From the NCBI GenBank assembly GCA_016186645.1, contig JACPLF010000007.1:126651-190650 (forward strand): 64,000 bases of DNA, written 5' to 3'. Made by a program: the position numbers and the translations under genes. Position 1 is the first letter of the stretch. Each line of letters begins with the position of its first letter. Below are positions 1-45,960 of this stretch, in pieces. The DNA is from Candidatus Levyibacteriota bacterium (GTDB lineage: Bacteria > Patescibacteriota > Microgenomatia > Levybacterales > UBA12049). The notes beneath the pieces are model-generated. The model saw only the letters and a list, made by a program, of their open reading frames with translations. It ran no database searches and was not told the DNA's origin.

Positions 1-299
1 CAATTTACTATTGCTAATATATCTTCCTGGCTAACTAATGTCCACTCTTCGCTATCAACTTTTACTTCATTTCCTCCCCATTTTTTATACATTACTTTAT
101 CTCCTGCTTTAACAACCATGGGCTCTTTTTTTCCATCTTTATCCATTTTTCCAGCACCAACAGCCATAACAGTTCCTATTTGTGGTTTTTCTTTAGCAGA
201 GTCAGGAAGAATTATTCCGCTTGCTGTTTTTGATTGAACCTCCAAAGGTTTTATTAAAACATTATCGAACAGTGGCTTTAGGTTTTGCTTGCTTGCCAT
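1..299 (-). CDS. groES: co-chaperonin GroES (10 kDa chaperonin), 3' end cut by window edge
   Basis: Reverse-strand translation from ATG at 297-299 reads MASKQNLKPLFDNVLIKPLEVQSKTASGIILPDSAKEKPQIGTVMAVGAGKMDKDGKK...VKAGDKVMYKKWGGNEV..., the canonical GroES mobile loop and length. Absent from the ORF track because it runs off the window. Confidence 0.8.
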   Translation of the reverse strand, partial: MASKQNLKPLFDNVLIKPLEVQSKTASGIILPDSAKEKPQIGTVMAVGAGKMDKDGKKEPMVVKAGDKVMYKKWGGNEVKVDSEEWTLVSQEDILAIVN

Positions 300-394
300 A
301 ATAAATTATCACCTTTAAATAAGTAACTGACAAAATATACACTAAAACCAAAAAACTGTCAAGAGTTAAATGTCAAAAGCTTAAAGAAAGGGTT

Positions 395-421
395 GACACA
401 GATTCATTTCTTCTATACCAT
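395..421 (+). promoter_or_regulatory. possible sigma70-type promoter (TTGACA ... TATACC) upstream of surface-protein gene
   Basis: TTGACA at 395-400 followed about 15 nt later by TATACC, about 20 nt upstream of the ATG at 440; spacing is short, so weak. Confidence 0.25.
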
Positions 422-439
422 GAATTTGTAGGGATTTAT

Positions 440-1315
440 ATGTCCATTTTTTCGTCATACAAAAAAATATTCTTGTTGGGTTTTATCATCATAATCCTTA
501 TTGCAATTCCGTTTTCCGTATATATTGCCCAACAACGTCAGAGAACAACTACCAAAGCTGCCGCTTCTACTACTCTATCTTTTGATCCCGCATCGACAGG
601 AGGAGCTCCTGTTGCTACAAAAGTAGGCGAGACACTGACTTTGAACGTTGTTCTTGATCCTTCAGCCGGCACTCCTGCAAACCAGGTTTCTTTTGTGAAA
701 TTGTCCATCACTTTTGATTCATCCAAATTTACAGCTGAAAGTTTTAAGCCAAGTACAGACCCGAAGAATACCCTTACTTCCGTATTGGAAGAAGCTAGCT
801 TAACCTCCGGCAGAGCAACTATATCTTTATCTATTGGAGCTGATCCGACAAAAGTTGTAACGACAAAAACTAAAATTGCAATTCTAAAACTTAAAGCTCT
901 ATCTGTAACAACGCCTGGCAATCCAAGCAGTGTTACTTTTGGTTCTGACACGCAAGTCTTATCAATCGCTTCCTCCGATCAAACAAGCGAAAATGTTTTG
1001 TCAACAACTAGTCCTGCGATAGTAACTATTAACTCTGCATCTGTTTCAGCGTCGCCCACTCCAACAACTGCAATTCTTACAATTACTCCTACATCTCTTC
1101 CAGGTAATGCCCCATCACCTACGCTCTCGCCTTCAGGAGGAAATGCAGCTTTGATTATTGCTACTTCAGCACCTACTCTTCAGCCTCTTCCAACGCCAAC
1201 ATTCTTTCCGCAAGTAATACTTCCTCCAACAGGACCTTCGGAAAATATATTGGGAATCGGAATTGTCGGAATGATATTTACAATTATCGGAGGGATTCTC
1301 TTTTTACTTCTTTAA
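440..1315 (+). CDS. LPXTG-anchored cell-surface protein (sortase substrate) with Pro/Thr-rich linker
   Basis: N-terminal signal/TM segment; C-terminus ...VILPPTGPSENILGIGIVGMIFTIIGGILFLLL is LPPTG plus a hydrophobic tail; PTPT-rich stalk. Confidence 0.55.
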   Translation: MSIFSSYKKIFLLGFIIIILIAIPFSVYIAQQRQRTTTKAAASTTLSFDPASTGGAPVATKVGETLTLNVVLDPSAGTPANQVSFVKLSITFDSSKFTAESFKPSTDPKNTLTSVLEEASLTSGRATISLSIGADPTKVVTTKTKIAILKLKALSVTTPGNPSSVTFGSDTQVLSIASSDQTSENVLSTTSPAIVTINSASVSASPTPTTAILTITPTSLPGNAPSPTLSPSGGNAALIIATSAPTLQPLPTPTFFPQVILPPTGPSENILGIGIVGMIFTIIGGILFLLL

Positions 1316-3060
1316 TTATTTTCTTCAATAATTGACAGAAGTGCTTCTTGAGGAATAGAGATTTTTGCCTGAGAGATCATTCGGGATTTTCCTTTTTTTT
1401 GAGCTTCCAATAATTTATCTTTTCTTCTTCTGTCCCCGCCACTCATCTTAGCTAAAACATCTTTTCTAAAAGGCGGGGTTTCTTCCCGAGTTACAATGTT
1501 TCCGTCTACAACTCCTTGGATAATTTGTCTGAATTGCTGGCGCGGCAGCGAGTTTTTAAGTCTTTCTGCTTTTTGTCTTGCTACATGAATTGCCTCATCT
1601 TTATATGCAAGCTCTGATAAAATATCAATTGCAATATCATTTACTTTTAGCTCAATTTTCGCCAAATCTGCAACTTTGTAAGAAGTCAATTCGTAATCTA
1701 GACTTGCATAGCCTTTGGATTTGGATTTCAGATCGGATGAAATTCCCCTAATAAACATGCTAAAAGGCATATCATAAGAGAGCGCTGCATAACTTTCATG
1801 ATAATTTAGGTCTAATAAGCTTCCTTTTCGGCTCTGGCAGATGTTCATAATCGGACCTACATAATCTTTAGGCGTATAAACTATCAATTTCATATAAGGC
1901 TCTAGTATTGTTCCATCCTCTCTCTTTTCATATAAGACGTGGGGCATAGTTAATAAAATTTCCAAATTAAATTCCTGCTTTATTCTTTCTTTGACAATCT
2001 GAGCATGTAAAAGTCCCAAAAATCCTACCCTAAAACCGGATCCTAAATAAGACGAATATTCTTCCGTATAAGTTAGGGCAGTGTCGTTAAGAGTCAATTT
2101 TGCAAGCGATTCTTTTAAATAGGCATAATCATTTGTACTTTTTGGATAGACTCCAAAAAACACCATCGGTTTGGGAATCTTGTATCCGGGCAGCGGTTCA
2201 AACTCCGAACTCTGAGCTCCGAACTCTGAACTCCGGACAGTGTCTCCGACACGCACTTTTCGGATATCTTTAACTCCTGTAATAACGTAACCAATTTCAC
2301 CTGTTGTTATTTCATTTGAAGAAACTAAATGGGGGGAGAAATATCCCAAATCTGTAATTTCTGACTCGATATTATTTTGATAAAACTCGATTTTTTCTCC
2401 TTTTTTTACTTGCCCATCAACTATTCTCACATACGCAACTACCCCGCGGAATTCATCATAAACAGCATCAAAAATAAGACCGCGCAGGGTCTTATCTTTT
2501 TCCCCTTTTGGCGCAGGAAGTCTCTTTACAACAGCTTCCAAAAGACTTTCTATATTTTTTCCTGTTTTTGCCGAAATATAAATTATTTCTTCTTCTTTAA
2601 ATCCAAATGTTCCAGCTAATTCTTTGCTTGTTGATTCAATCTGTGCGCTCGGCAAATCTATCTTGTTAACAACAGGTATCATGACTAAATTTTGTTTTTT
2701 GGCTTCTCTGAAATGCGCGACAGTTTGGGCTTGAATTCCCTGAGTTGCATCTACTAATAATATTGCCCCCTCACAAGCCGCCAACGTTCGGGAAACTTCA
2801 TAAGAAAAATCAACATGACCCGGAGTATCTATCAAATTCAGAATGTATAATTCAGAATTAAGAATATATTTCATTCTTACCGGGGCGAGCTTGATTGTTA
2901 TTCCCCGGCGTCTGCTGATTGGATTTTGGTCCAAAAACTGTTCTGTTATTTTTTCCTTGGGGATTGTTTTTGTAATTTCCAAAAGTCTGTCTGCAAGAGT
3001 GGATTTGCCATGATCTACATGAGCAATAATCGCAAAATTCCTAATATTTTTCTGTTCCAT
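1312..3060 (-). CDS. lepA: elongation factor 4 (LepA), translational GTPase
   Basis: N-terminus MEQKNIRNFAIIAHVDHGKSTLADRLLE (G1 motif AHVDHGKST), DTPGHVDF, NKID motifs; about 582 aa. Confidence 0.9.
   Translation of the reverse strand: MEQKNIRNFAIIAHVDHGKSTLADRLLEITKTIPKEKITEQFLDQNPISRRRGITIKLAPVRMKYILNSELYILNLIDTPGHVDFSYEVSRTLAACEGAILLVDATQGIQAQTVAHFREAKKQNLVMIPVVNKIDLPSAQIESTSKELAGTFGFKEEEIIYISAKTGKNIESLLEAVVKRLPAPKGEKDKTLRGLIFDAVYDEFRGVVAYVRIVDGQVKKGEKIEFYQNNIESEITDLGYFSPHLVSSNEITTGEIGYVITGVKDIRKVRVGDTVRSSEFGAQSSEFEPLPGYKIPKPMVFFGVYPKSTNDYAYLKESLAKLTLNDTALTYTEEYSSYLGSGFRVGFLGLLHAQIVKERIKQEFNLEILLTMPHVLYEKREDGTILEPYMKLIVYTPKDYVGPIMNICQSRKGSLLDLNYHESYAALSYDMPFSMFIRGISSDLKSKSKGYASLDYELTSYKVADLAKIELKVNDIAIDILSELAYKDEAIHVARQKAERLKNSLPRQQFRQIIQGVVDGNIVTREETPPFRKDVLAKMSGGDRRRKDKLLEAQKKGKSRMISQAKISIPQEALLSIIEENN
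2202..2237. repeat. 14-nt tandem repeat (ctccgaactctga x2 plus partial) in-frame inside lepA
   Basis: Direct tandem copies at 2202-2216, 2217-2230 and partial 2231-2237; encodes SSEFGAQSSEFEP on the minus strand without breaking the ORF. Confidence 0.7.
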
Positions 3061-3081
3061 TGGGGAATATTATACTATTTT

Positions 3082-4749
3082 CTATGGATTAATGCGGGTG
3101 ACATCAATTGCTTCGTCTCTTTTGCTAAGGATTTCTTTCCAATTTCCTATTTTCTTAAAAATTAACAAAAATGTTGTTGCTTCTTTGACGTTGAAAAGCC
3201 AGGTTAAAAAAAGATAAAAAGAGAGTCCAATTAAACTTGATATTCCGGTCAGAAATATTAAATTTATTGTTCGTGTAGTATCAAAAACTAACTGATCTAA
3301 TAATTTTACAGGAACATATAAGGCAATACCTGTAAAAAAAGTCGCTAAGAAGATTTTAAGCGGAGAGAGAAATAATAAACCCCTAGGGAATCCTTGGACT
3401 TTTTTATTCAGAACAATAATAAGAGTGATTAATTGAAGAATATTGGTTAAGGTAAACGCGAATGCGATACTTTCAATGTTCATCTGCTTGATAATAACAA
3501 AATAATATCCAAGTATTATAAGTAATGTCGTAGAAAAGCCGCTGACAATAAGAGGAATTAACGAGTTGTGTAATGCATAAAATGCGCGATAGAAAAGAAC
3601 AATTAGAGCTTGCGCAAAAATAGAAATAGATAAGAAGGCTAAAATATGACCGGTTAGAACTGTTGCTGGCCAATCAAATTTATCTGCTCCGAAAGCCAGA
3701 CGCACGATTGGTATTCTAAGAACAAGTATAAGAATCGAGATTGGAAGAATAAGATATAGCATTTGATTGAAGCTCGTAATAAAGGTTATTTTAAAATCAT
3801 TAAGATTATTTTTTTCTCGTGAAAGAACAGGAAAAGCTGCCTGGGCAATACTGAATCCAACCAAAGAAATTGGAGCAAACATAAGCGTCTTTGCCGCATT
3901 AAAGAGTAAATGTGTGCGTCCAGGCTCAATCATAAATGCTATAATTGCAGCAAGAATAATTGTCCCTATTTGCTGTACAGCTACTTGAATCGTGCGTGGC
4001 CACATAAGCGTAAATATCTTATTGAGTCCTTTTGATTTGATAAAATTGATTGTCGGTCTAAAAGAAAATCCGACTTTTCTGGCAAGTGGAATTTGAAACA
4101 AAACAAAAATCACAGCACCCAAAACAACCCCAAGGGGAATAGCATAAATTCCGAAAAACTGATTGAATAACAAAATACCAAATATTATTCCTACATTGTA
4201 AAATGCCGCCGCAATTCCAGGTATAAAAAAATGGTTGTATGATTGCAGCATTGCGCTAAAAAAAGTACCAATTATATAGATAAGCTGGCCAACGACAATT
4301 ATCCGCATTAGATTAGCCATTAATTGCATGTCGCCGCTGGAAAAATTATGTCCACCATTAAAAATAGCAAGTAGTTGAGAAGCAAATATAGCAAGAGTTA
4401 GAGAAAGAATAATGAAAATAGCAAGCCCGACAGAAAGAAGCGTTGATGCCATTTCATGCGCAGATTTTTCCTCCCCTTTTACCAAATACTCAGAAAAAAC
4501 CGGTATAAATGCAGATGTAAGCGCTGCTGCAATAGTTAACTGAAAGATAGTGTCAGGAAGAATTGACGCATAATCGTAAATTCCTAAAGTGTTTGATGGG
4601 CCAAAAATAGAGAATGATAACCTCGTGCGGATAAGACCCAGAATATGAGACAAAACAACAGTTGTCATAATAATAAAAGCGGCGGAGAGAATATTGGTTT
4701 GACGAGTAAGAAGTATATTGATACTTTTCTTTAAAAAGTTCTGGGCCAT
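3082..4749 (-). CDS. murJ: lipid II flippase MurJ (MviN family)
   Basis: 555 aa, about 14 predicted TM helices; MurJ-like N-terminal region and conserved Arg/Asp positions; adjacent to cell-envelope genes. Confidence 0.8.
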   Translation of the reverse strand: MAQNFLKKSINILLTRQTNILSAAFIIMTTVVLSHILGLIRTRLSFSIFGPSNTLGIYDYASILPDTIFQLTIAAALTSAFIPVFSEYLVKGEEKSAHEMASTLLSVGLAIFIILSLTLAIFASQLLAIFNGGHNFSSGDMQLMANLMRIIVVGQLIYIIGTFFSAMLQSYNHFFIPGIAAAFYNVGIIFGILLFNQFFGIYAIPLGVVLGAVIFVLFQIPLARKVGFSFRPTINFIKSKGLNKIFTLMWPRTIQVAVQQIGTIILAAIIAFMIEPGRTHLLFNAAKTLMFAPISLVGFSIAQAAFPVLSREKNNLNDFKITFITSFNQMLYLILPISILILVLRIPIVRLAFGADKFDWPATVLTGHILAFLSISIFAQALIVLFYRAFYALHNSLIPLIVSGFSTTLLIILGYYFVIIKQMNIESIAFAFTLTNILQLITLIIVLNKKVQGFPRGLLFLSPLKIFLATFFTGIALYVPVKLLDQLVFDTTRTINLIFLTGISSLIGLSFYLFLTWLFNVKEATTFLLIFKKIGNWKEILSKRDEAIDVTRINP

Positions 4750-5094: not shown

Positions 5095-5631
5095 TTGGCT
5101 ATGCCAAATAATCTGTCCTCTATAAATCTTATCAAAAATAAACAGATTCCTCTTTTTGATAAGTTTATGAACTGGGCCCTAACAGTAGGCCGCTTGATTG
5201 TAATATTTACAGAAATAGTAGCAGTTTCAGCTTTTATTTATAGATTTTCCCTGGATGAGAGACTTATTGACCTTCACTCTGCGATCAAACAAAAACAGGC
5301 TTTGATCTCACTTTTAAAGCAAGATGAAACTAAATATAGAAATTTACAGAATCGTATCGCCCTAGCGTCTACGCTTTCTGAAAAAAATGAAAAAACTAAC
5401 AAGATAGTTTTAAATATTACAGACTTAATACCCCAGGGAGTAAGAATCAGTAATTTGACTTTCAATCAAGACAAAATAACCATAAACGCAAATGTAAATT
5501 CCGTATCATCATTAACGGATTTCATAAATACCCTTAGAGATTACCCAGATGTTAAATCTATAAGTATAGCCAACATCGAAAATAAGCCTTTGGTCGGCCT
5601 TTCGGTCACTGTTACAACAACACTTAAATAA
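5095..5631 (+). CDS. pilN: type IV pilus assembly protein PilN-like (single N-terminal TM)
   Basis: About 178 aa, short cytoplasmic N-terminus, one TM helix, periplasmic coiled-coil; followed by a PilO-like gene. Confidence 0.5.
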   Translation: MAMPNNLSSINLIKNKQIPLFDKFMNWALTVGRLIVIFTEIVAVSAFIYRFSLDERLIDLHSAIKQKQALISLLKQDETKYRNLQNRIALASTLSEKNEKTNKIVLNITDLIPQGVRISNLTFNQDKITINANVNSVSSLTDFINTLRDYPDVKSISIANIENKPLVGLSVTVTTTLK

Positions 5632-5634
5632 AAT

Positions 5635-6252
5635 ATGCAAGATATAGCTCAAGAAATAGCAAAAATTAAATATTTCCCAAAACTTCCATATTTAAGTGAA
5701 GAAAGAAGTCACAAGTTCCTTACTATAGCATTAACTCTTCTTGCTTTGTCGTTTTTTGGACTTTTTGCTATAAATCCAACCGTCTCAACTATCTTAAAAT
5801 TGAAAAAAGAACTTTCAGATAGTGAATTCATCCATAGAGAGCTGGAAACTAAAATAAAAAATTTAGGTATACTTAGAAATCAGTACAATAATATACAAAC
5901 TGATTTGCCAATTGTTACAGATGCTATAACCACGCAGCCGGATGTTCATATCCTCTTTGCCCAAGTGCAAGCCGCCAGCCAAAGATCAAATGTAAAGATA
6001 AAAAAACTTCAAAATTTCGAAGTAGAAGTCATCAAAAATGAAAAGACACTGAATAAAGATTATTATTCCTATTCTTTTGCGATCGCGGGTAGCGGCGCTT
6101 TTGAAGATATATCTGATTTCGTCACAACCATTACAAATATGCAAAGAGTTATTGATATTGATGTGTTCTCTATAAGCAGCGCAACTACACAAGCTAGTCA
6201 GTCTTTGGAATTCAACATTCAGGCAACAGCTTTTTTCAAGGATAATTTATGA
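5635..6252 (+). CDS. pilO: type IV pilus assembly protein PilO-like
   Basis: 205 aa, N-terminal TM helix, coiled-coil then alpha/beta C-terminal region; gene order pilN-pilO. Confidence 0.45.
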   Translation: MQDIAQEIAKIKYFPKLPYLSEERSHKFLTIALTLLALSFFGLFAINPTVSTILKLKKELSDSEFIHRELETKIKNLGILRNQYNNIQTDLPIVTDAITTQPDVHILFAQVQAASQRSNVKIKKLQNFEVEVIKNEKTLNKDYYSYSFAIAGSGAFEDISDFVTTITNMQRVIDIDVFSISSATTQASQSLEFNIQATAFFKDNL

Positions 6253-36506: not shown

Positions 36507-36785
36507 ATGGATAATCAAAATAAAATAACATCTATCTTATTTCTTCTTAAAAAAAAGAAAATACTTATTGGAGTACCATTGCTTCTGCTTTCTGTCGGAG
36601 TAATTTATGTTGGGCTAGTGCGATTTGGAGTTATCAAAGATCCTTTCCCTCTTCCTAATATACCTTTTCTTCAAACAGTCCCACAAGTTTCTATAAAAAC
36701 AGAATACAAAAATCCTTTTGATAAAAAAACCCAGTACGTAAATCCATTTGACACTTATAAAAATCCTTTTGTAATTGCAAAATAA
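36507..36785 (+). CDS. small membrane protein with C-terminal NPFD repeats, coupled to the giant protein
   Basis: 92 aa; one TM; C-terminus KNPFDKKTQYVNPFDTYKNPF; TAATG overlap with the next gene. Confidence 0.35.
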   Translation: MDNQNKITSILFLLKKKKILIGVPLLLLSVGVIYVGLVRFGVIKDPFPLPNIPFLQTVPQVSIKTEYKNPFDKKTQYVNPFDTYKNPFVIAK

Positions 36786-39553
36786 TGATAATAAGTAAAA
36801 TTTTAACATTGAACCCTATTAAGACATTACTTCTGGCATTGGCTGCGATGTTTTTATTATTTCTCGTAACAACTTCTGTTTTTTCACAAAGCCCAACAAT
36901 CCAACCAACAACTGCTACAGGACCGTCTCTTAACCTTGCTTTTCCCATAGAAGAATTGGGCGCATGCAAGAGTCTGGAAGAATGTAGCAATTATTGTCAG
37001 GATCCTGTTCACCAAAACAGTTGTACTAATTTTGCAAAGAAAAATGGATTCTATCAGGATGACCAAACAGCCTATGGAGATGATAAATTTTATCAGGATG
37101 TAAAAGAGGAATTAGGATGCGATACGCACGAATCTTGTTTTAACTTTTGTTCAGAGCCTGCGAATTTTGACACATGCGAATCCTATGCCAAAAGAAATGA
37201 AATACCAGGCGGCTATGTCGGAGAACCGGATAAGCCTGAATATTTAACCATTGCTAAGCAAGTTTTAGGTTGTGATTCACCTGTAAGCTGCTCAAATTTC
37301 TGCGATGATCCCGCAAATGCTGATAAATGTTCTAGCTTTGCTGATCAAGTAGGACTTTTAGGCGGAAATACTCAAGAAGGTCCTGGTGGATGTCAGACTC
37401 CCGGCACTTGCGGAGCATATTGTTCTGATCCTGCAAATTATGTGGAATGTTCTAAATTTGCTCCGGGAGGGGGTAATTTTGCAGGACCAGGCGGGTGTAA
37501 TAGTGAAGCAACATGTCGAAGTTATTGCGATCAAAATCCTGCTAATTGCCGAAGTTATGCTCCCGGCTCAAGTGGGGCATATGGGACTTTTAATTGTGTC
37601 GAAGGTCAGACTCATGGACCAGGCGGACTTTGTACCAATGTGAACGTTATGGCTTTGGCTGCTGCCTGCGTTGGAGCTGGTAAATTTTGGGATGGAACTT
37701 CCTGTCAGGATACCGCTCCTGTAGGTATATCTCCAGAACTGCCAAGTGCGCATTTTGAACAAAGACCGGAAATGGGCAATTGCTCAACTCCTGGTCAATG
37801 TTATGATTATTGTAAGGATAATCTTGTGAATGGTGCGAGCGTTTGTCCGGGATTCGATGCTACAGCATCCCGTCCAACCGACAGCTATACACCATATCTA
37901 TATTATACTCCCGGAACTGAGGTTAAATTTGAACCAAAGCCGGAGATGGGTAACTGTGATTCTCCTGGCGCTTGTTATGACTATTGTAAAGAAAATCCCG
38001 ATAAATGCGAAGGATTTGATCCTAAGGCTCCAGTACCAATAGACATTTGGATTCCAAATACTTACTACACTCCTCCTACAGATGGTATCTATTCTACTCC
38101 GCCAACAACCAATTTCTACACAACGCCAATGTACTACACTCCGCCAGTCGGCTCTACTTATACTACTCCTCAATACTACACGCCTGGCACATATTCTACT
38201 CCAAGTTACTATACACCGCCTATAGGATCGAACTATACTACGCCTAACTACTATACTCCTTGGACTAATTATGCGACACCAACCGGAGAGTATCCGACTC
38301 CGACTTATTCAACACCAACTTACTACACTCCTCCTGGTGGATCTAATTACACAACGCCTTACTATTACACTCCCCCTCATTACACAACGCCTTACTATTA
38401 CACTCCCGGCCAAGGTGGCTATGCGTCTAATTACACAACTCCTCCTGCCTATTCAACTCCTCCGCCATATGTAACTCCTCAGTATTACACGCCTTACACC
38501 GGCGGCGGTTATACAACTCCTGTTTACTATACACCGCCTGTTTACACAACCCCAACTTACTACACTCCTCCTGCAGGCTCGAACTACACCAGCCCAAGTT
38601 ATTACACGCCTCCTCCTCCTTATACAACACCAAATTACTATACTCCTGGCACTTACCCAACACCTCCTACTTATACATCTCCTACGGCTTATACGACGCC
38701 TAACTATCCAACTCCTCCATTAGGCAGTAACTATACCTCCCCTAGCTATTATTCGCCAGCAAGCTATCCAACACCAACTTATTACACACCAGGTTTTTAC
38801 CCAACACCTTATTATTACACGCCTTATTCAACACCCTCCTATCACACTCCTCCTGAAGGATCAACCTATACCAGCCCGACTTACTACACACCATATTCAA
38901 CGCCAAATTACTTTACGCCAACGTACTATTCACCTTCTTACTACACGCCTGGCGGAACCTACACAAGTCCTTATTATACTCCTGGAAGCGGTTACACATC
39001 CCCAACCTCAAATTATACAACTCCATCAACTAGCTATACTTCTCCATACTACAGTCCTTACGCAAGTCCATCATATTACACACCCTCAGACCCGAATTAT
39101 ACAACGCCGTCTTATCCAACGCCTTATTCCTATCCTACTCCGGGATCAACAACTTCTTATCCATACCCGACTCCTGGAACAGGATATTCTTACCCAACGC
39201 CAAGCGGCTATTATTACCCAACCCCATCAGACACTAGTTATCCTTCTCCATATACCGGCTATGCTTATCCAACGCCTGGAACTAGTTATTCTTACCCTTC
39301 GCCAACATACGGCACGCCTTCGGGAAGCTATTATTACCCAACACCCGGATCCGGATCTTATGGCACGCCATCATACGGCACCCCTGAATATCACACACCA
39401 AGCTATGGAACACCTTCAGAAAGCTACGGAACACCGAGTTATGGAACGCCATCGTATGGCACTCCTTCTGATTACCCAACCCCTCCCTTGGGAGTTTCCA
39501 CCTTCAATCCCGGATTATTACAGAATATCTGGAGCTTCCTTATCGGCAGATAA
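36785..39553 (+). CDS. giant secreted protein: seven 4-Cys modules followed by about 500 aa of Tyr/Thr/Pro-rich repeats
   Basis: Signal/TM at N-terminus; repeats of G-C-x4-C-x2-[YF]-C-x2-P-x-N-x2-3-C-x2-[FY]-A; then YYTPP / GSNYT[TS]P repeats; hydrophobic C-terminus. Confidence 0.6.
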   Translation: MIISKILTLNPIKTLLLALAAMFLLFLVTTSVFSQSPTIQPTTATGPSLNLAFPIEELGACKSLEECSNYCQDPVHQNSCTNFAKKNGFYQDDQTAYGDDKFYQDVKEELGCDTHESCFNFCSEPANFDTCESYAKRNEIPGGYVGEPDKPEYLTIAKQVLGCDSPVSCSNFCDDPANADKCSSFADQVGLLGGNTQEGPGGCQTPGTCGAYCSDPANYVECSKFAPGGGNFAGPGGCNSEATCRSYCDQNPANCRSYAPGSSGAYGTFNCVEGQTHGPGGLCTNVNVMALAAACVGAGKFWDGTSCQDTAPVGISPELPSAHFEQRPEMGNCSTPGQCYDYCKDNLVNGASVCPGFDATASRPTDSYTPYLYYTPGTEVKFEPKPEMGNCDSPGACYDYCKENPDKCEGFDPKAPVPIDIWIPNTYYTPPTDGIYSTPPTTNFYTTPMYYTPPVGSTYTTPQYYTPGTYSTPSYYTPPIGSNYTTPNYYTPWTNYATPTGEYPTPTYSTPTYYTPPGGSNYTTPYYYTPPHYTTPYYYTPGQGGYASNYTTPPAYSTPPPYVTPQYYTPYTGGGYTTPVYYTPPVYTTPTYYTPPAGSNYTSPSYYTPPPPYTTPNYYTPGTYPTPPTYTSPTAYTTPNYPTPPLGSNYTSPSYYSPASYPTPTYYTPGFYPTPYYYTPYSTPSYHTPPEGSTYTSPTYYTPYSTPNYFTPTYYSPSYYTPGGTYTSPYYTPGSGYTSPTSNYTTPSTSYTSPYYSPYASPSYYTPSDPNYTTPSYPTPYSYPTPGSTTSYPYPTPGTGYSYPTPSGYYYPTPSDTSYPSPYTGYAYPTPGTSYSYPSPTYGTPSGSYYYPTPGSGSYGTPSYGTPEYHTPSYGTPSESYGTPSYGTPSYGTPSDYPTPPLGVSTFNPGLLQNIWSFLIGR

Positions 39554-39604: not shown

Positions 39605-42115
39605 ATGTTCAAATTCTTCGCGTTACTCTTATTTCTCATTTTTCATTTTCCTGCCTCGCCGCCAGGCGGGTCTTTTTTCATTTCTCCTGTTTCTGCTCAT
39701 TCAGAAGTTGCGGTTATAGAAATGGTGCCTTATGGCTTTGTTCCTTCTGAAACAACTATTGATGTAAATTCAAGTGTAATTTTCATCAATAAAGATAGTC
39801 AACCAAGATGGCCTGCCAGCAATGTCCATCCGACTCATAATATATATCCCGAATTTGATCCAAAAAAACCAATTGAGCCCGGAGAATCATGGGCATTCAA
39901 GCCTAAAAGAATAGGAGAATGGAAATTTCACGATCATAATTTCCCCCATATGAGAGGAGTTTTAACTGTCGTTGATGAAGAAGGTTTTACTTCAGAGGAA
40001 AAAATAGAGTCCCCTTCTTTTGTTACTAAGTTTAAAAATGCAATTAACAATTTCTTTAATCAGATTAAAAACTTATTCGCTAAAAAAGCATTAAATCAAC
40101 AGGTACAATTACCTGATAAAGAAGGGTTCAAAAAACTATCTTATGATGCTCAATCTAAAATACTAGAAAAAATTGCGAGAAACAATGGTGCTTCAAAAGC
40201 TTGGGAATATGTGAAAGATGTTTTCAAAGGAGAAGGAGGATCTTCCGGCAACATTCATGATTTGGCGCATTTATCAGGTCTTTTGATATATGAAAAGAAT
40301 GGCTTTGAAGGAATTAAAGACTGCACTAGTAATTTTGCTTTTGGCTGTTATCATGGTTTTTTAGATACTGCTTTTGCCAAAAATTTGGACCATCTTTTGG
40401 ATGCAGAGAATGCTTGTTTGAAATTAGGCCCTACTAATTCCGGACCTGTTGCAAGCTGCATACACGGAATTGGACATGGAGTTGCTTCTTTTTATTCAAC
40501 GCAGGATTTGGAAAAATCTCTTGTTACCTGCAGGAAATTAAACCAAGGCAATGAATACTGTTTTGATGGAGTATTTATGGAATTTGTCCGCTCCGCGCCC
40601 GATTCATTTTTTAAAAGTAACGATCCCTACTACCCTTGCAACAGCTTGGAGGAAAAATATGGATATTCTTATTCATCTGCCTGCGGAAGAAATCAATCTT
40701 CCCTTTTAATGAGTAGATTTAATATGGGATTTGACGAAGTGGTTGGAATTTGTCTTTCTTCAACATCAAAACCTTTTAAAGAAAGTTGTTTCGACGCTCT
40801 AGGATTTTCTCTTGCTTCTTCTGGAGATGTTAACCAAATAATAGTAGGGTGTCAAAAGATGCAGATATCTGAATATATTAATAAGTGCGCAAAAGCTGCC
40901 GCAGGAGAGTTAGTTTTTCAGGAAATACCCGGATGGCCGGAAAAATCAAAAGAAGTTTGTAATGCATTTGAAAAAAGCGAAGAGTGTTTGCAAAACGTAG
41001 ATAGACTTATTAAGGAATATAACCTTCAAGTCCAAATCAACTTTACCCCAAAAGAACTCAATGAAGATATTAATTTATATGTAAGAAGCCAGATGAAAAA
41101 ATGTTATGAAACGGATGGCAGGGACGGATGCTACAAAGCCGTTGCTGACATATTGTATAGTCAGTTTGGTTTAGCCAAAACTCTTAATGTTTTTAAAGAA
41201 AACGAAGGATATGTAGAAATTTATGCAAGATGTCATGAGACAACTCATTATCTTTCCCGGCTGGAATATGAGAAGCAAAAGAGTATTGCCAAAGTTTATG
41301 CTCAATGTGATTCAACATGTCATGGAGGATGTTACCACGGAACACTTGAGGCATATCTTAAAGAAAAGACAAATGAGACTGGATTTAATCTAGTGAGTCG
41401 ATTTGCTAAAGTTTGCGGAAAACAAAGCGATTATCAGAAGCCTATCGAGTTTAATGAATGTCTTCATGGCATGGGACACGCAGCAATGTTTGTCACAGAT
41501 ATGGAACTTAAACAATCTTTAAAGCTTTGCGATACTATTGCTGATCAAGCGCATAAAGAAAGATGTTATACCGGAGTATTTATGGAAAATTCCTCATCCT
41601 CTACTTCTTTTGATCATGCAAGTATATACATTAAAAAAGATGATCCATTTTATCCATGCAATTCTTTAGAGGAAAAATATTTATCTTTGTGCTGGCAGTA
41701 TCAAAGTTCGTATTTTTCCATTATCAGTCACCAGGATTGGAAAAAAGTAGCAAGTCTTTGCCTGCAAATTCCTAATCAGTATCAAGATCGATGCTTTAGG
41801 ACTATCGGAACAAACCAAGTTGGTTTTACTCAATCTTTAGAAACCATGAAAAAAGATTGTGATCTTATGCCCTCTGAAAATTTTAAAGACATTTGTATTG
41901 CAGGCGTTGTTTCCTCTCTTTCCTATCGTTTTGTCGGAGACATGCGAAAAATGATTGACTTTTGCTCTCTTGTCTCTTCACAAAATAGAGAAAGCTGTTA
42001 CAAACAAATTGGTAATGGAGTTTCTGATTGGGATAGCAACAAAGATGTGGCAAAAAACCAATGTCAAAAAATTCCCGACCCCCAAGGCCAATCTTGGTGC
42101 CTGAGCGCAATATGA
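39605..42115 (+). CDS. secreted protein: N-terminal cupredoxin-like domain (Cys ligand replaced) plus two tandem Cys-paired repeat domains
   Basis: Signal peptide; EWKFHDHNFPHMRGVLTVVDE aligns to the amicyanin/pseudoazurin loop Y-x-C-T-P-H-P-F-M-R-G-K-V-V-V-E with Cys replaced; then two repeat units with CYHGF, CIHGIGHG, YPCNSLEEKY motifs. Confidence 0.55.
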   Translation: MFKFFALLLFLIFHFPASPPGGSFFISPVSAHSEVAVIEMVPYGFVPSETTIDVNSSVIFINKDSQPRWPASNVHPTHNIYPEFDPKKPIEPGESWAFKPKRIGEWKFHDHNFPHMRGVLTVVDEEGFTSEEKIESPSFVTKFKNAINNFFNQIKNLFAKKALNQQVQLPDKEGFKKLSYDAQSKILEKIARNNGASKAWEYVKDVFKGEGGSSGNIHDLAHLSGLLIYEKNGFEGIKDCTSNFAFGCYHGFLDTAFAKNLDHLLDAENACLKLGPTNSGPVASCIHGIGHGVASFYSTQDLEKSLVTCRKLNQGNEYCFDGVFMEFVRSAPDSFFKSNDPYYPCNSLEEKYGYSYSSACGRNQSSLLMSRFNMGFDEVVGICLSSTSKPFKESCFDALGFSLASSGDVNQIIVGCQKMQISEYINKCAKAAAGELVFQEIPGWPEKSKEVCNAFEKSEECLQNVDRLIKEYNLQVQINFTPKELNEDINLYVRSQMKKCYETDGRDGCYKAVADILYSQFGLAKTLNVFKENEGYVEIYARCHETTHYLSRLEYEKQKSIAKVYAQCDSTCHGGCYHGTLEAYLKEKTNETGFNLVSRFAKVCGKQSDYQKPIEFNECLHGMGHAAMFVTDMELKQSLKLCDTIADQAHKERCYTGVFMENSSSSTSFDHASIYIKKDDPFYPCNSLEEKYLSLCWQYQSSYFSIISHQDWKKVASLCLQIPNQYQDRCFRTIGTNQVGFTQSLETMKKDCDLMPSENFKDICIAGVVSSLSYRFVGDMRKMIDFCSLVSSQNRESCYKQIGNGVSDWDSNKDVAKNQCQKIPDPQGQSWCLSAI

Positions 42116-42910: not shown

Positions 42911-43846
42911 TTAGTGGATTAGAAATTCATCAAGATATTTGTTCAATTCTTCATTAGGTTGCGAAAAAATGCCTACTAAATCTTCATCAAATATTTTCTG
43001 TAAAGATCTTCTAGCAATATCTTCTGCATCTCGTATTATTTCATTTGCACTCAAAGGATTACTCAAGACTCTTCTAGGAAGACTCGCTCCATGAACTGCA
43101 GATGATCTCAGCTCGTAAATAGTCTTAATCTTCTGAATTATAGATTTTTTTTCCGTTATACTCTGGCCAAGAAAAGCGGCACACCGCATTCTTAATGAAT
43201 ATCCTACTTCTGATTCCGAGGTATTAAATAGAGATTCCAGGGTAATTGCAAAAGGAACAGTTCTGAGTTTTGCATAATGAGTTAAATACCCTAGCTGAAA
43301 AAAATTAAAAGCATTAAGAACTCGATTGTATGAACCCTGATATTTTGCAAATAATTCTGACACACAATAGTAATATCTCTGAATTTTCTTTTCTTCCCCA
43401 GCCTGAAAATGTGATGATCCAAGAGGCTCACCATAGATCAAAAAAATTGCATTTGTTTTCTGACTTGCACCTTCGGGACTCAGATTTCCATTATGATCTA
43501 AACTAAATAAGAATGTTGAACTTGCTGCTCTAGTTGGACGCACAACACGTAAGCTTTCAATTATATGGTGAATTTTCTTCTGAGCTTTATCTGAATCTTC
43601 TACAGATGAATCGAATTCATATACGGCATAAAATCTACAATTTTTTAACTCATCTATCTCATATTTAGCATAAATGTCTTGAAATGAGTCAACTATTATT
43701 GCGATTAAGTCGTTTAGTTTGTCATCTTTTCTCCTCAAGCTCAATGCATCCTCTAATTTTATTTCATCAGGAAGACGATCCCTTGGATCATCATAAAAGA
43801 AGTGTATCGGGGCAATAATTCTAAGTTTGCTCATATTTTCAAACAA
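42911..43846 (-). CDS. hypothetical protein with C-terminal Rx4HG (HEPN-like) motif; possible abortive-infection-type RNase
   Basis: 311 aa, soluble; ...IYELRSSAVHGASL contains R-x4-H-G, the HEPN catalytic signature; adjacent to the TA pair. Confidence 0.35.
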   Translation of the reverse strand: MFENMSKLRIIAPIHFFYDDPRDRLPDEIKLEDALSLRRKDDKLNDLIAIIVDSFQDIYAKYEIDELKNCRFYAVYEFDSSVEDSDKAQKKIHHIIESLRVVRPTRAASSTFLFSLDHNGNLSPEGASQKTNAIFLIYGEPLGSSHFQAGEEKKIQRYYYCVSELFAKYQGSYNRVLNAFNFFQLGYLTHYAKLRTVPFAITLESLFNTSESEVGYSLRMRCAAFLGQSITEKKSIIQKIKTIYELRSSAVHGASLPRRVLSNPLSANEIIRDAEDIARRSLQKIFDEDLVGIFSQPNEELNKYLDEFLIH

Positions 43847-43935
43847 ATTTTAGGACTATTTAATATCATCCCATCTATCAAGATACTTATTTAAAATTAC
43901 ATCTTTGAAAGTAATGGAATCTTTCATACCTTTGA

Positions 43936-44133
43936 TTAATTTGATGACTTTTTGAAGGATTTAAGTGATTTATCCCGCTGATTAGTTGAATTCTTTGATA
44001 AATCTATGGCTTTTGTCTGCAGTGGACTCGAAAGCGTAATTATTCCATTACTTTGTTTACCTCTTGCCACTTCGATTTTCTTACCACCACCAAAATGAAT
44101 GGTCAAATTCTTAATGAGGCTAAACTCAAACAC
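43936..44133 (-). CDS. hypothetical small protein
   Basis: 65-aa ORF overlapping the upstream ORF by 8 nt; no motifs. Confidence 0.2.
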   Translation of the reverse strand: MFEFSLIKNLTIHFGGGKKIEVARGKQSNGIITLSSPLQTKAIDLSKNSTNQRDKSLKSFKKSSN

Positions 44134-44446
44134 TTATTGTACCTCCTGCTATAGTTGTAAGCATATGTAGGAATGTTTTTGAATCTTCTCGGTGTGCTTG
44201 TCTCAAATCTGGATCTATTAGTTCCCAATTAAACTGTCTTCCATCTCTCCCGAATGGTTGAATAATTCCATTTCTTTCCAAAGCAGAGACAGTTCCTCCT
44301 AATGCATTTCCCTGTAAACCTGAAGCTGTAGATATATAAGTTCCTGGGACCACAAAATTTGCATAGGGGACAGACACCATAGCTTGTATCACCTTTGCCT
44401 GATTTTGTGTTAATTTTCTCACTTTTAGTTCTGCCATTGTTCCCAT
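44126..44446 (-). CDS. hypothetical small protein (possible winged-helix)
   Basis: 106 aa; LTQNQAKVIQAMV ... ALERNGIIQPFGRDGRQ suggests a helix-turn-helix plus wing; speculative. Confidence 0.25.
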   Translation of the reverse strand: MGTMAELKVRKLTQNQAKVIQAMVSVPYANFVVPGTYISTASGLQGNALGGTVSALERNGIIQPFGRDGRQFNWELIDPDLRQAHREDSKTFLHMLTTIAGGTISV

Positions 44447-44750
44447 ATATTCTAATTATACCACACTACGCCAACTATTGCAAGTATCATTTGAAAGTAG
44501 AGCATTACGACTACTTTAAAAGCAAATTTTACCAACTTCTCTCAGGACAAGTCTTTTTTGTGGGGAATTTCCAGATTTAAAAAATTTTACCATTTACGAA
44601 GCTCAATTTAAATAATTCTTCCTTGCTCGCCAGCCAAGCGGGACGATTTCCGCTATCCTCTCACACTTCCTTTTTTATTTGGGGTTTCAAACGTTTTCGC
44701 ATCATCATTGTGAGGTTTTAAGTCGCTCCATAATTTGCCTATTTTTATCT

Positions 44751-45862: not shown

Positions 45863-45937
45863 TTCCTCTGTAGCTCAATGGTAGAGCGGCGCCCTGTTAA
45901 GGCGAAGGTTAGAGGTCCGAGTCCTCTCGGGGGAGCC
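45863..45937 (+). tRNA. tRNA-Asn (anticodon GTT)
   Basis: tcctctgtagctcaatggtagagcggcgccctgttaaggcga...agaggtccgagtcctctcggggga-g-cca; 5' half matches E. coli tRNA-Asn (UCCUCUGUAG...CUGUUAA); cloverleaf folds with 7-bp acceptor (2 GU), T-stem agagg/cctct; encoded CCA. Confidence 0.8.
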
Positions 45938-45960
45938 AAGGTTGTCTCTCAACTCCGCCC

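Follow-up and report, generated by a model that had tools for sequence, protein, structure and literature searches.

An ApeA-type HEPN domain in a two-domain protein from an accessory islet of a Levyibacteriota genome: a candidate standalone RNase

ApeA is a single-protein abortive-infection system, and its effector domain is the closest described relative of the subject of this work, a HEPN-family protein encoded in a 64,000-nucleotide stretch of DNA (Candidatus Levyibacteriota bacterium, assembly GCA_016186645.1, contig JACPLF010000007.1, positions 126,651 to 190,650 of the forward strand), which was analysed as a whole and is referred to here as the window. HEPN domains are defined by an Rx4H motif at the end of helix 3, in which the arginine is followed by a polar residue (mostly N, D or H), and by a conserved acidic residue in helix 2 that lies near the active site, typically within an Ex3[KR] context (PMC3710099). 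ApeA proteins combine an N-terminal domain, a Mid domain and a HEPN_ApeA domain that is split by insertions; they act against phages, form HEPN dimers and doughnut-shaped oligomers, cleave tRNA anticodons and are activated by deoxydinucleotides (bioRxiv 10.64898/2026.01.26.701840).

The protein described here joins an N-terminal alpha/beta domain to a C-terminal all-alpha domain, for which there is strong evidence of a HEPN fold with an intact catalytic constellation. Its gene lies in a 2.3-kb accessory islet that also holds a conserved pair of small genes (a 106-aa winged helix-turn-helix, or wHTH, gene and a 65-aa gene) and a HigBA-like pair. The explanation that we favour, with a chance slightly better than even, is that the protein works by itself, as a self-regulated HEPN RNase of the ApeA type with a part in abortive infection or some similar conflict, and independently of both neighbouring pairs.

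A HEPN domain with an ApeA-type catalytic core

A sequence-only reading of the window had drawn attention to the string KTIYELRSSAVHGASLPRR (YELRSSAVHG) in a 311-aa protein as the signature of a HEPN-type RNase, and had described five open reading frames (ORFs) on the minus strand, two of them overlapping by 8 nt; the string and all five ORFs are present where it placed them. On its own the motif is weak evidence, and from the composition of the protein itself an Rx4H would be expected about 0.5 times by chance and an Rx4HG about 0.018 times. The motif goes beyond chance because R247, H252 and G253 are invariant, together with E204, in an alignment of 115 diverse homologues with 17-65% identity to the query (residue numbers throughout follow the 311-aa ORF that starts at TTG 43846). 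These four are the sole invariant columns, so that conservation of the Rx4HG in homologues, which had been named in advance as a check on the assignment, bears it out. R221, Y244 and S248 are kept in at least 90% of the homologues (S248 in 96%), the residue directly after the catalytic arginine being S in 110 of the 115, G in four and C in one. The family consensus reads aLEsLFsT ... R.a.FLg ... Y..RS.iVHG.

An AlphaFold2 model of very high confidence, built from the 115-sequence alignment (mean pLDDT 95.2, pTM 0.93), resolves the chain into two domains. In the model the N-terminal domain is composed of strands at residues 7-15, 28-32, 35-39, 72-79, 111-116 and 122-128 and helices at 42-54, 61-68 and 85-102, while the proposed helices of the HEPN domain are H1 (175-188), H2 (192-207), an insert helix (214-226), H3 (230-251) and H4 (264-287). 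R247 falls inside the helix at 230-251, H252 is the first loop residue after it, and E204 lies inside the helix at 192-207; with its motif at the end of H3 and E204 in H2, the domain matches the published definition of HEPN (PMC3710099), and E204 is predicted from the alignment to be the auxiliary acidic residue of the active site. The structures listed beside the model of the all-alpha domain are HepT toxins (8xdj, 7ae2, 5yep), 4nqf, Csm6, TTHA0636, AbiA, the sacsin HEPN domain, Las1 and AbiV. The view of the protein as HEPN-type, first drawn from the motif, is thereby supported at the level of predicted fold, canonical motif position and invariance, and RNase activity would be expected of it. 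The two domains differ in their conservation, with a mean pairwise identity of 14% in the N-terminal domain vs 29% in the HEPN domain, and we propose, by analogy, that the N-terminal domain may be a sensor or regulatory domain.

Which HEPN family the domain belongs with was addressed by profile comparisons. The sole meaningful match of the family profile among PDB sequences was Ec4ApeA (9hxm), with E=0.011 for a stretch that spans helices 1-2 and contains the aLEsL motif, and a phmmer search of PDB sequences with the 311-aa protein itself gave nothing meaningful. An Ec4ApeA-type gene was taken from an Enterobacter plasmid and 28 homologues were aligned for profile-profile comparison; hhalign then matched the HEPN-protein family to it with 80.3% probability (E=1.4e-5, 142 columns), and the C-terminal domain alone with 89.5% probability. 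The residues that the two profiles align, given as HEPN family/Ec4ApeA-type, are E204/E381, R221/R419, Y244/Y505, R247/R508, S248/N509, H252/H513, G253/N514 and R279/R533. The HEPN_Apea model PF18739 matched one of the 115 family members, weakly (E=0.0078), the PADLOC ApeA models matched none of them, and the N-terminal domain had no profile similarity to the N-terminal or Mid domains of ApeA (probability 0.1%). Taken at the level of sequence profiles, the HEPN domain is homologous to HEPN_ApeA, a relationship that is remote but consistent. The effector domain is ApeA-type, yet the protein is not an ApeA because it has half the length and a different N-terminal domain. Kinship with AbiD/F, AbiU2 or AbiV, which the motif had at first brought to mind, found no sequence support, the closest HEPN family being ApeA; the Pfam and PADLOC models for AbiD/F (Abi_2), AbiU2, AbiV, DARNA/PD-T7-3, PrrC/RloC and RnlA/LsoA gave no sequence-profile match.

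With regard to the Ec4ApeA-type gene itself (L032 1463..5111, Enterobacter cloacae plasmid pCC32; related loci are cited by such L numbers), we observed that it adjoins the anti-phage gene ppl. The gene is called 'hypothetical protein' on many IncC-type Enterobacterales plasmids, and 71 records match a 37-aa fragment of Ec4ApeA at >=99% identity.

Distribution, gene neighbourhoods and the separate wHTH pair

When 1.84 billion cluster representatives were searched exhaustively with HMMER, 1,052 matched the family at E<=1e-3; the count falls to 54 at E<=1e-10 and to five at E<=1e-30. For the most part they have a length of about 300 aa, and many align over residues ~170-310 only. Several distant relatives carry the NCBI name 'HEPN domain-containing protein', and a word-indexed search returned 12 close relatives only, all without assigned function. 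The phyletic spread is patchy, taking in candidate phyla radiation (CPR) bacteria, Bacteroidota, Bacillota and Proteobacteria. Of the 115 family members 99 match PHROG 28161, with a best E of 8e-12, and the window protein does so at 2.6e-7 across its catalytic core (residues 202-259); a tblastn search of deposited phage genomes gave no match, and a search for related loci with a narrow alignment confirmed none in genome contigs or viral contigs. Literature searches found no description of the family.

Neighbours were compared all-against-all within 3 kb of the HEPN-family gene at ten loci, and the only one to recur was a putAbiC-like gene beside both plasmid copies of the family (putAbiC-type, PF16872; L030 6444..7460 and L031 3003..4007, mutual blastp E=7e-6). 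One of these plasmids, from Exiguobacterium (L030), carries a full-length member (257 bits) beside a DUF4145 protein, an integrase and a MutH/Sau3AI endonuclease, and the other, from Cupriavidus (L031), carries a relative in which only the C-terminal domain matches, beside Wadjet JetABC and the putAbiC protein. On a CPR-like metagenomic contig (L003) the homologue P0009 directly follows an N6_N4 methyltransferase, a ResIII helicase and a TnsA-like endonuclease (76..4543) and has a T5orf172 protein on its other side, which is a restriction-modification (type III-like) or defence-type context. A relative in Aureispira anguillae (L026) has an integrase on one side and a GH19/amidase lysis module on the other, all within a prophage-like element; another homologue lies near a serine recombinase (L002), a 58%-identical one lies among small ORFs of the mobile-element kind (L004), and P0007 follows an SNase-domain protein (L005). 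A homologue between an MFS transporter and YchF (L001) and a relative between thiC and lnt (L028) stand in other surroundings. The homologues at L001 to L005 are close ones, and those at L026, L028, L030 and L031 are more distant. The patchy spread, the mobile and defence contexts, the fact that no partner gene is conserved and the joining of a conserved effector with a variable second domain together fit a self-contained conflict or defence gene, and of the abortive-infection module put forward in the sequence-only reading it is the abortive-infection role that these contexts make plausible, while the module of three genes was not supported. Separately, we noted in L005 a 163-aa ORF immediately upstream of P0007 (3677..4168) that contains RKFFSH, an Rx4H, and has no significant Pfam match.

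Several observations weigh against a defence RNase of the HEPN kind. In hmmscan searches no model of Pfam, NCBIfam or PADLOC matched the 311-, 106- or 65-aa protein, so that the HEPN protein escapes all three collections and the suggested PADLOC check brought no support for it or for the two small proteins. A Foldseek search of the PDB with the whole chain found no significant match. The residue after the catalytic arginine is S, which is polar but not the typical N, D or H, and E204 stands outside an Ex3[KR] context, the residue at E+4 being S, N or T rather than K or R. The window copy, moreover, lies among housekeeping genes (RpoD, DnaG and PurA are nearby), as do the L001 and L028 relatives. 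These last surroundings bear on the reading in which the protein has a non-defence role, either in housekeeping RNA processing or turnover or as a non-catalytic binder of nucleotides or other ligands, its accessory location being incidental; some HEPN proteins do process RNA (Las1, Swt1) and others are non-catalytic (PMC3710099), and the copies in the window, L001 and L028 are all found among ordinary chromosomal genes. We nevertheless consider such a role unlikely, since the full catalytic constellation is invariant, the distribution is patchy with plasmid, prophage and PHROG representation, neighbourhoods are not conserved and the N-terminal domain evolves fast, a combination typical of conflict genes and not of housekeeping enzymes.

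The two small genes upstream of the HEPN gene are the second subject of interest. The 106-aa protein, at first only a possible winged helix, has the topology H1-S1-H2-H3-S2-wing-S3 and structural similarity to known winged-helix domains, which confirms the assignment, and its family is confined to Microgenomates-group CPR bacteria. Homologues of the 65-aa protein are encoded directly 3' of wHTH genes in L008/L009, L013, L014, L015, L016, L017 and L019 (at least seven other distinct loci); because they directly follow wHTH genes elsewhere, the two form a conserved pair, and the 65-aa ORF is a genuine gene, small but conserved, that partners the wHTH gene and not the HEPN gene. What comes after the pair varies: a HEPN gene in this organism only, and otherwise unknown 178-aa or 120-aa proteins, a toxin-antitoxin pair of RHH and PIN proteins, GNAT acetyltransferases or an alpha/beta hydrolase. 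Where a wHTH gene has no recognisable 65-aa homologue, the next gene encodes an NYN-domain protein or a 133- or 225-aa unknown.

These arrangements bear on the proposal that wHTH (as regulator or antitoxin), 65-aa and HEPN genes belong to a single operon, of abortive-infection or toxin-antitoxin-like type, whose small upstream proteins control a HEPN toxin. Within the window several features speak for the proposal: the three genes share a strand, the first two overlap by 8 nt, the gap between the 65-aa ORF and the HEPN gene is just 101 nt, the best of the promoter-like sites is located 5' of the wHTH gene, and no terminator-like site precedes the end of the HigA-like gene. In L004, where the HEPN homologue is 58% identical, a distant member of the wHTH family (HMM E=1.6e-9) is encoded about 880 nt upstream of the HEPN gene, and RNase-type genes follow other wHTH genes (NYN in L012 and L022, PIN in L015). 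However, the wHTH-like gene is present at two of the ten HEPN-family loci, the window and L004, and absent from eight, while the 65-aa gene occurs in the window alone and is absent from nine; conversely, of the wHTH loci in other organisms, about 16 distinct ones, none has a HEPN-family gene, and GNATs, a hydrolase and unrelated unknowns also lie downstream there. The wHTH-like and HEPN genes of L004 have two unrelated ORFs between them, and the counts of promoter-like and terminator-like sites in the region are at the level of shuffled sequence. The three-gene arrangement, whose conservation in other genomes the sequence-only reading had named as a check, is thus not conserved, and we regard a single operon of this kind as improbable; the islet genes may nonetheless be co-transcribed. 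Because the wHTH and 65-aa genes form a separate conserved pair, the HEPN protein most likely acts alone.

Some further observations concern the small-gene pair itself. In both L008 (2873..3523) and L018 (5146..5874) a pair of Gp49/HigB-like and HTH_3 genes similar to that of the window is found a few kb at most from the wHTH + small-ORF pair, in differing orientations, which suggests a recurrent co-location of HigBA-like and wHTH + small-ORF pairs in accessory regions. In L008 the 178-aa protein that follows the wHTH gene and a 66-aa ORF (5530..6066) has EALFTT ... RDTLVAH, which resembles ESLFxT ... RSxxVHG; as a related mini-HEPN it had no Pfam match and an hhalign probability of 1.6% only. 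The wHTH + 65-aa pair (L008, L012-L025) could be a toxin-antitoxin-like or regulatory cassette that marks variable regions.

On the other side of the HEPN gene lies a HigBA-type pair, as had been proposed: a RelE-superfamily toxin gene comes first and an overlapping Xre/HTH antitoxin gene follows, with matches to PF05973 and HTH_3. It is a neighbouring module, separate from the HEPN gene. Its presence touches on the idea of a conventional toxin-antitoxin system with the HEPN protein as its toxin, in which the antitoxin would be either the HigA-like protein or an unrecognised protein or RNA, as in HEPN-MNT, RnlAB and AbiF. We hold this to be very improbable, the least probable of the explanations considered: the ten loci have neither an MNT gene nor any other conserved small neighbour or partner near the HEPN-family gene, no Gp49/HTH_3 pair adjoins the other HEPN-family genes, and a protein of about 300 aa with an extra domain looks less like a minimal toxin than like an enzyme that regulates itself. 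An RNA antitoxin (AbiF-like or type III) is unlikely and was rejected as a candidate, as the flanking intergenic regions contain no Rfam family or tandem repeats and fold no more stably than shuffled sequence.

Features of the islet and its surroundings

Table 1. Coordinates of the features discussed, in window numbering
Feature	Position	Strand	Details
Two-domain HEPN-family gene	42911..43834	-	307 aa from ATG 43834; mechanical ORF 42911..43846 from TTG, 311 aa
N-terminal alpha/beta domain, residues 6-130	43457..43831	-	AlphaFold2 model
C-terminal all-alpha HEPN domain, residues 152-311	42914..43393	-	AlphaFold2 model
RSSAVHG motif (R247-x4-H252-G253)	43088..43108	-	R247 at 43106..43108; H252-G253 at 43088..43093
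E204, LESLF motif of helix 2	43235..43237	-	invariant in 115 homologues; aligns with the ALESL motif of Ec4ApeA
65-aa ORF	43936..44133	-	GTG start; good Shine-Dalgarno sequence, AGGAGG, 8 nt upstream of GTG
106-aa wHTH ORF	44126..44446	-	8-nt overlap with 65-aa ORF
HigB-like toxin, 119 aa	42451..42810	-	Pfam Gp49/PF05973 4.2e-22; TIGR02683 8e-7; RelE/ParE superfamily
HigA-like Xre/HTH_3 antitoxin, 102 aa	42146..42454	-	Pfam HTH_3 4.9e-16; 4-nt overlap with toxin gene
Sigma-70-like promoter candidate	44455..44483	-	TTGCAA-17-TATAAT, extended TG; immediately upstream of wHTH start codon
Intrinsic-terminator-like hairpin	42075..42091	-	only one in region; downstream of HigA-like gene
tRNA-Asn (GTT)	45864..45938	+	1.4 kb from islet
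922-aa ORF	36785..39553	+	no Pfam match
836-aa Cys-rich secreted protein	39605..42115	+	

The ATG at 43834 (MSKL...) is the start in all homologues and in the NCBI record, a 100% identical entry for a 307-aa hypothetical protein of Candidatus Levybacteria, and is likely to be the true start of the HEPN gene. The genes on either side of the islet encode an M23 peptidase and a large secreted protein rich in Cys; those for RpoD, DnaG and PurA lie at a greater distance. A discrete integrated element was considered and finds no support: a tRNA-Asn gene is nearby, but neither att-like direct repeats (between 41800 and 46200) nor a compositional break at the islet were found.

Two of the surrounding ORFs have features of their own. 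The 922-aa ORF has a strongly negative GC skew (-0.46 to -0.57) and a raised GC content (0.45-0.48) at 38000..39500 and may encode a compositionally biased or repetitive surface protein. The 836-aa Cys-rich protein shows an apparent internal duplication (DPYYPCNSLEEKY... and DPFYPCNSLEEKY...) and, at its N-terminus, a weak cupredoxin-like match (E=9e-4, below the Pfam cutoff).

Proposed mode of action, significance and comparison with known systems

The favoured explanation, a standalone ApeA-type enzyme, can be set out as follows. At the close of helix 3, R247 and H252 would form a metal-independent RNase site together with the polar S248 and with E204 of helix 2, and the HEPN domain probably dimerises to give a composite active site, as in ApeA and other single-protein HEPN defence enzymes. 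The N-terminal domain would keep the enzyme inactive until it senses a cue of infection or stress; once activated, the enzyme might cleave RNA of the cell or of the phage (in characterised relatives the target is tRNA anticodon loops), and the cleavage would bring growth or phage replication to a stop. By the same analogy, the presumed function is anti-phage.

A broader proposal, which we put forward tentatively and hold to be less probable than not, is that the family as a whole (~1,050 representatives of ~300 aa) constitutes an undescribed single-protein anti-phage 'mini-ApeA' in which a new, fast-evolving alpha/beta sensor responds to a different signal, and that, alongside it, the wHTH + 65-aa pair is a portable regulatory or toxin-antitoxin-like cassette of the Microgenomates group that marks or controls toxin or defence genes (HEPN, NYN, PIN). 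If true, a compact (~300 aa), widespread single-gene HEPN system, now missed by PADLOC and Pfam, would join the anti-phage repertoire, and an ApeA-type RNase core attached to a different small sensor would offer a natural comparison for how HEPN enzymes are wired to infection signals. The gene would also be among few candidate abortive-infection genes in genomes of CPR bacteria (Patescibacteria), organisms with tiny genomes and an episymbiotic lifestyle whose immunity is poorly understood; to our knowledge, very little defence biology has been characterised in Microgenomates-group CPR bacteria. Otherwise, HEPN proteins in accessory regions being common, the family would amount to one more uncharacterised HEPN protein, unsurprising to specialists. 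Nothing in the result for the HEPN protein overturns current understanding; what it provides is a candidate defence gene of CPR bacteria that can be tested.

Among known systems, the HEPN-MNT type (HepT/DUF86, AF0298-type) consists of single-domain proteins of 120-150 aa with an MNT antitoxin partner, whereas the HEPN protein here has two domains. DARNA (PD-T7-3), a single-protein HEPN tRNase, has its HEPN domain N-terminal and a Pds5-like domain C-terminal, the reverse of the order in this family. PrrC and RloC, unlike the HEPN protein here, carry ABC ATPases, and RnlA differs in its TBP-like domains and its antitoxin. PHROG 28161 is a phage protein family without an assigned name or function, and the match of the window protein to it is limited to the core of the HEPN domain. 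The likeness to ApeA (PF18739; 9HXI to 9HXN) is the most extensive: each is a single protein whose HEPN domain is C-terminal, and the two share the motifs R..A..FF (H1), aLEsL with an invariant E (H2), R in the insert helix and Y..R[S/N]..VH[G/N] (H3), have extra helices before H1 and after H4, and are found in plasmid and defence-type contexts. ApeA, in contrast, is ~600 aa long against ~300 aa here (307), has an insertion of ~80 residues between the insert helix and H3 that is absent from the HEPN protein, and has N after the catalytic R where this family has S. The effector domain and the logic of the protein are known from described systems, and what is new is a family that has not been curated and its new N-terminal domain.

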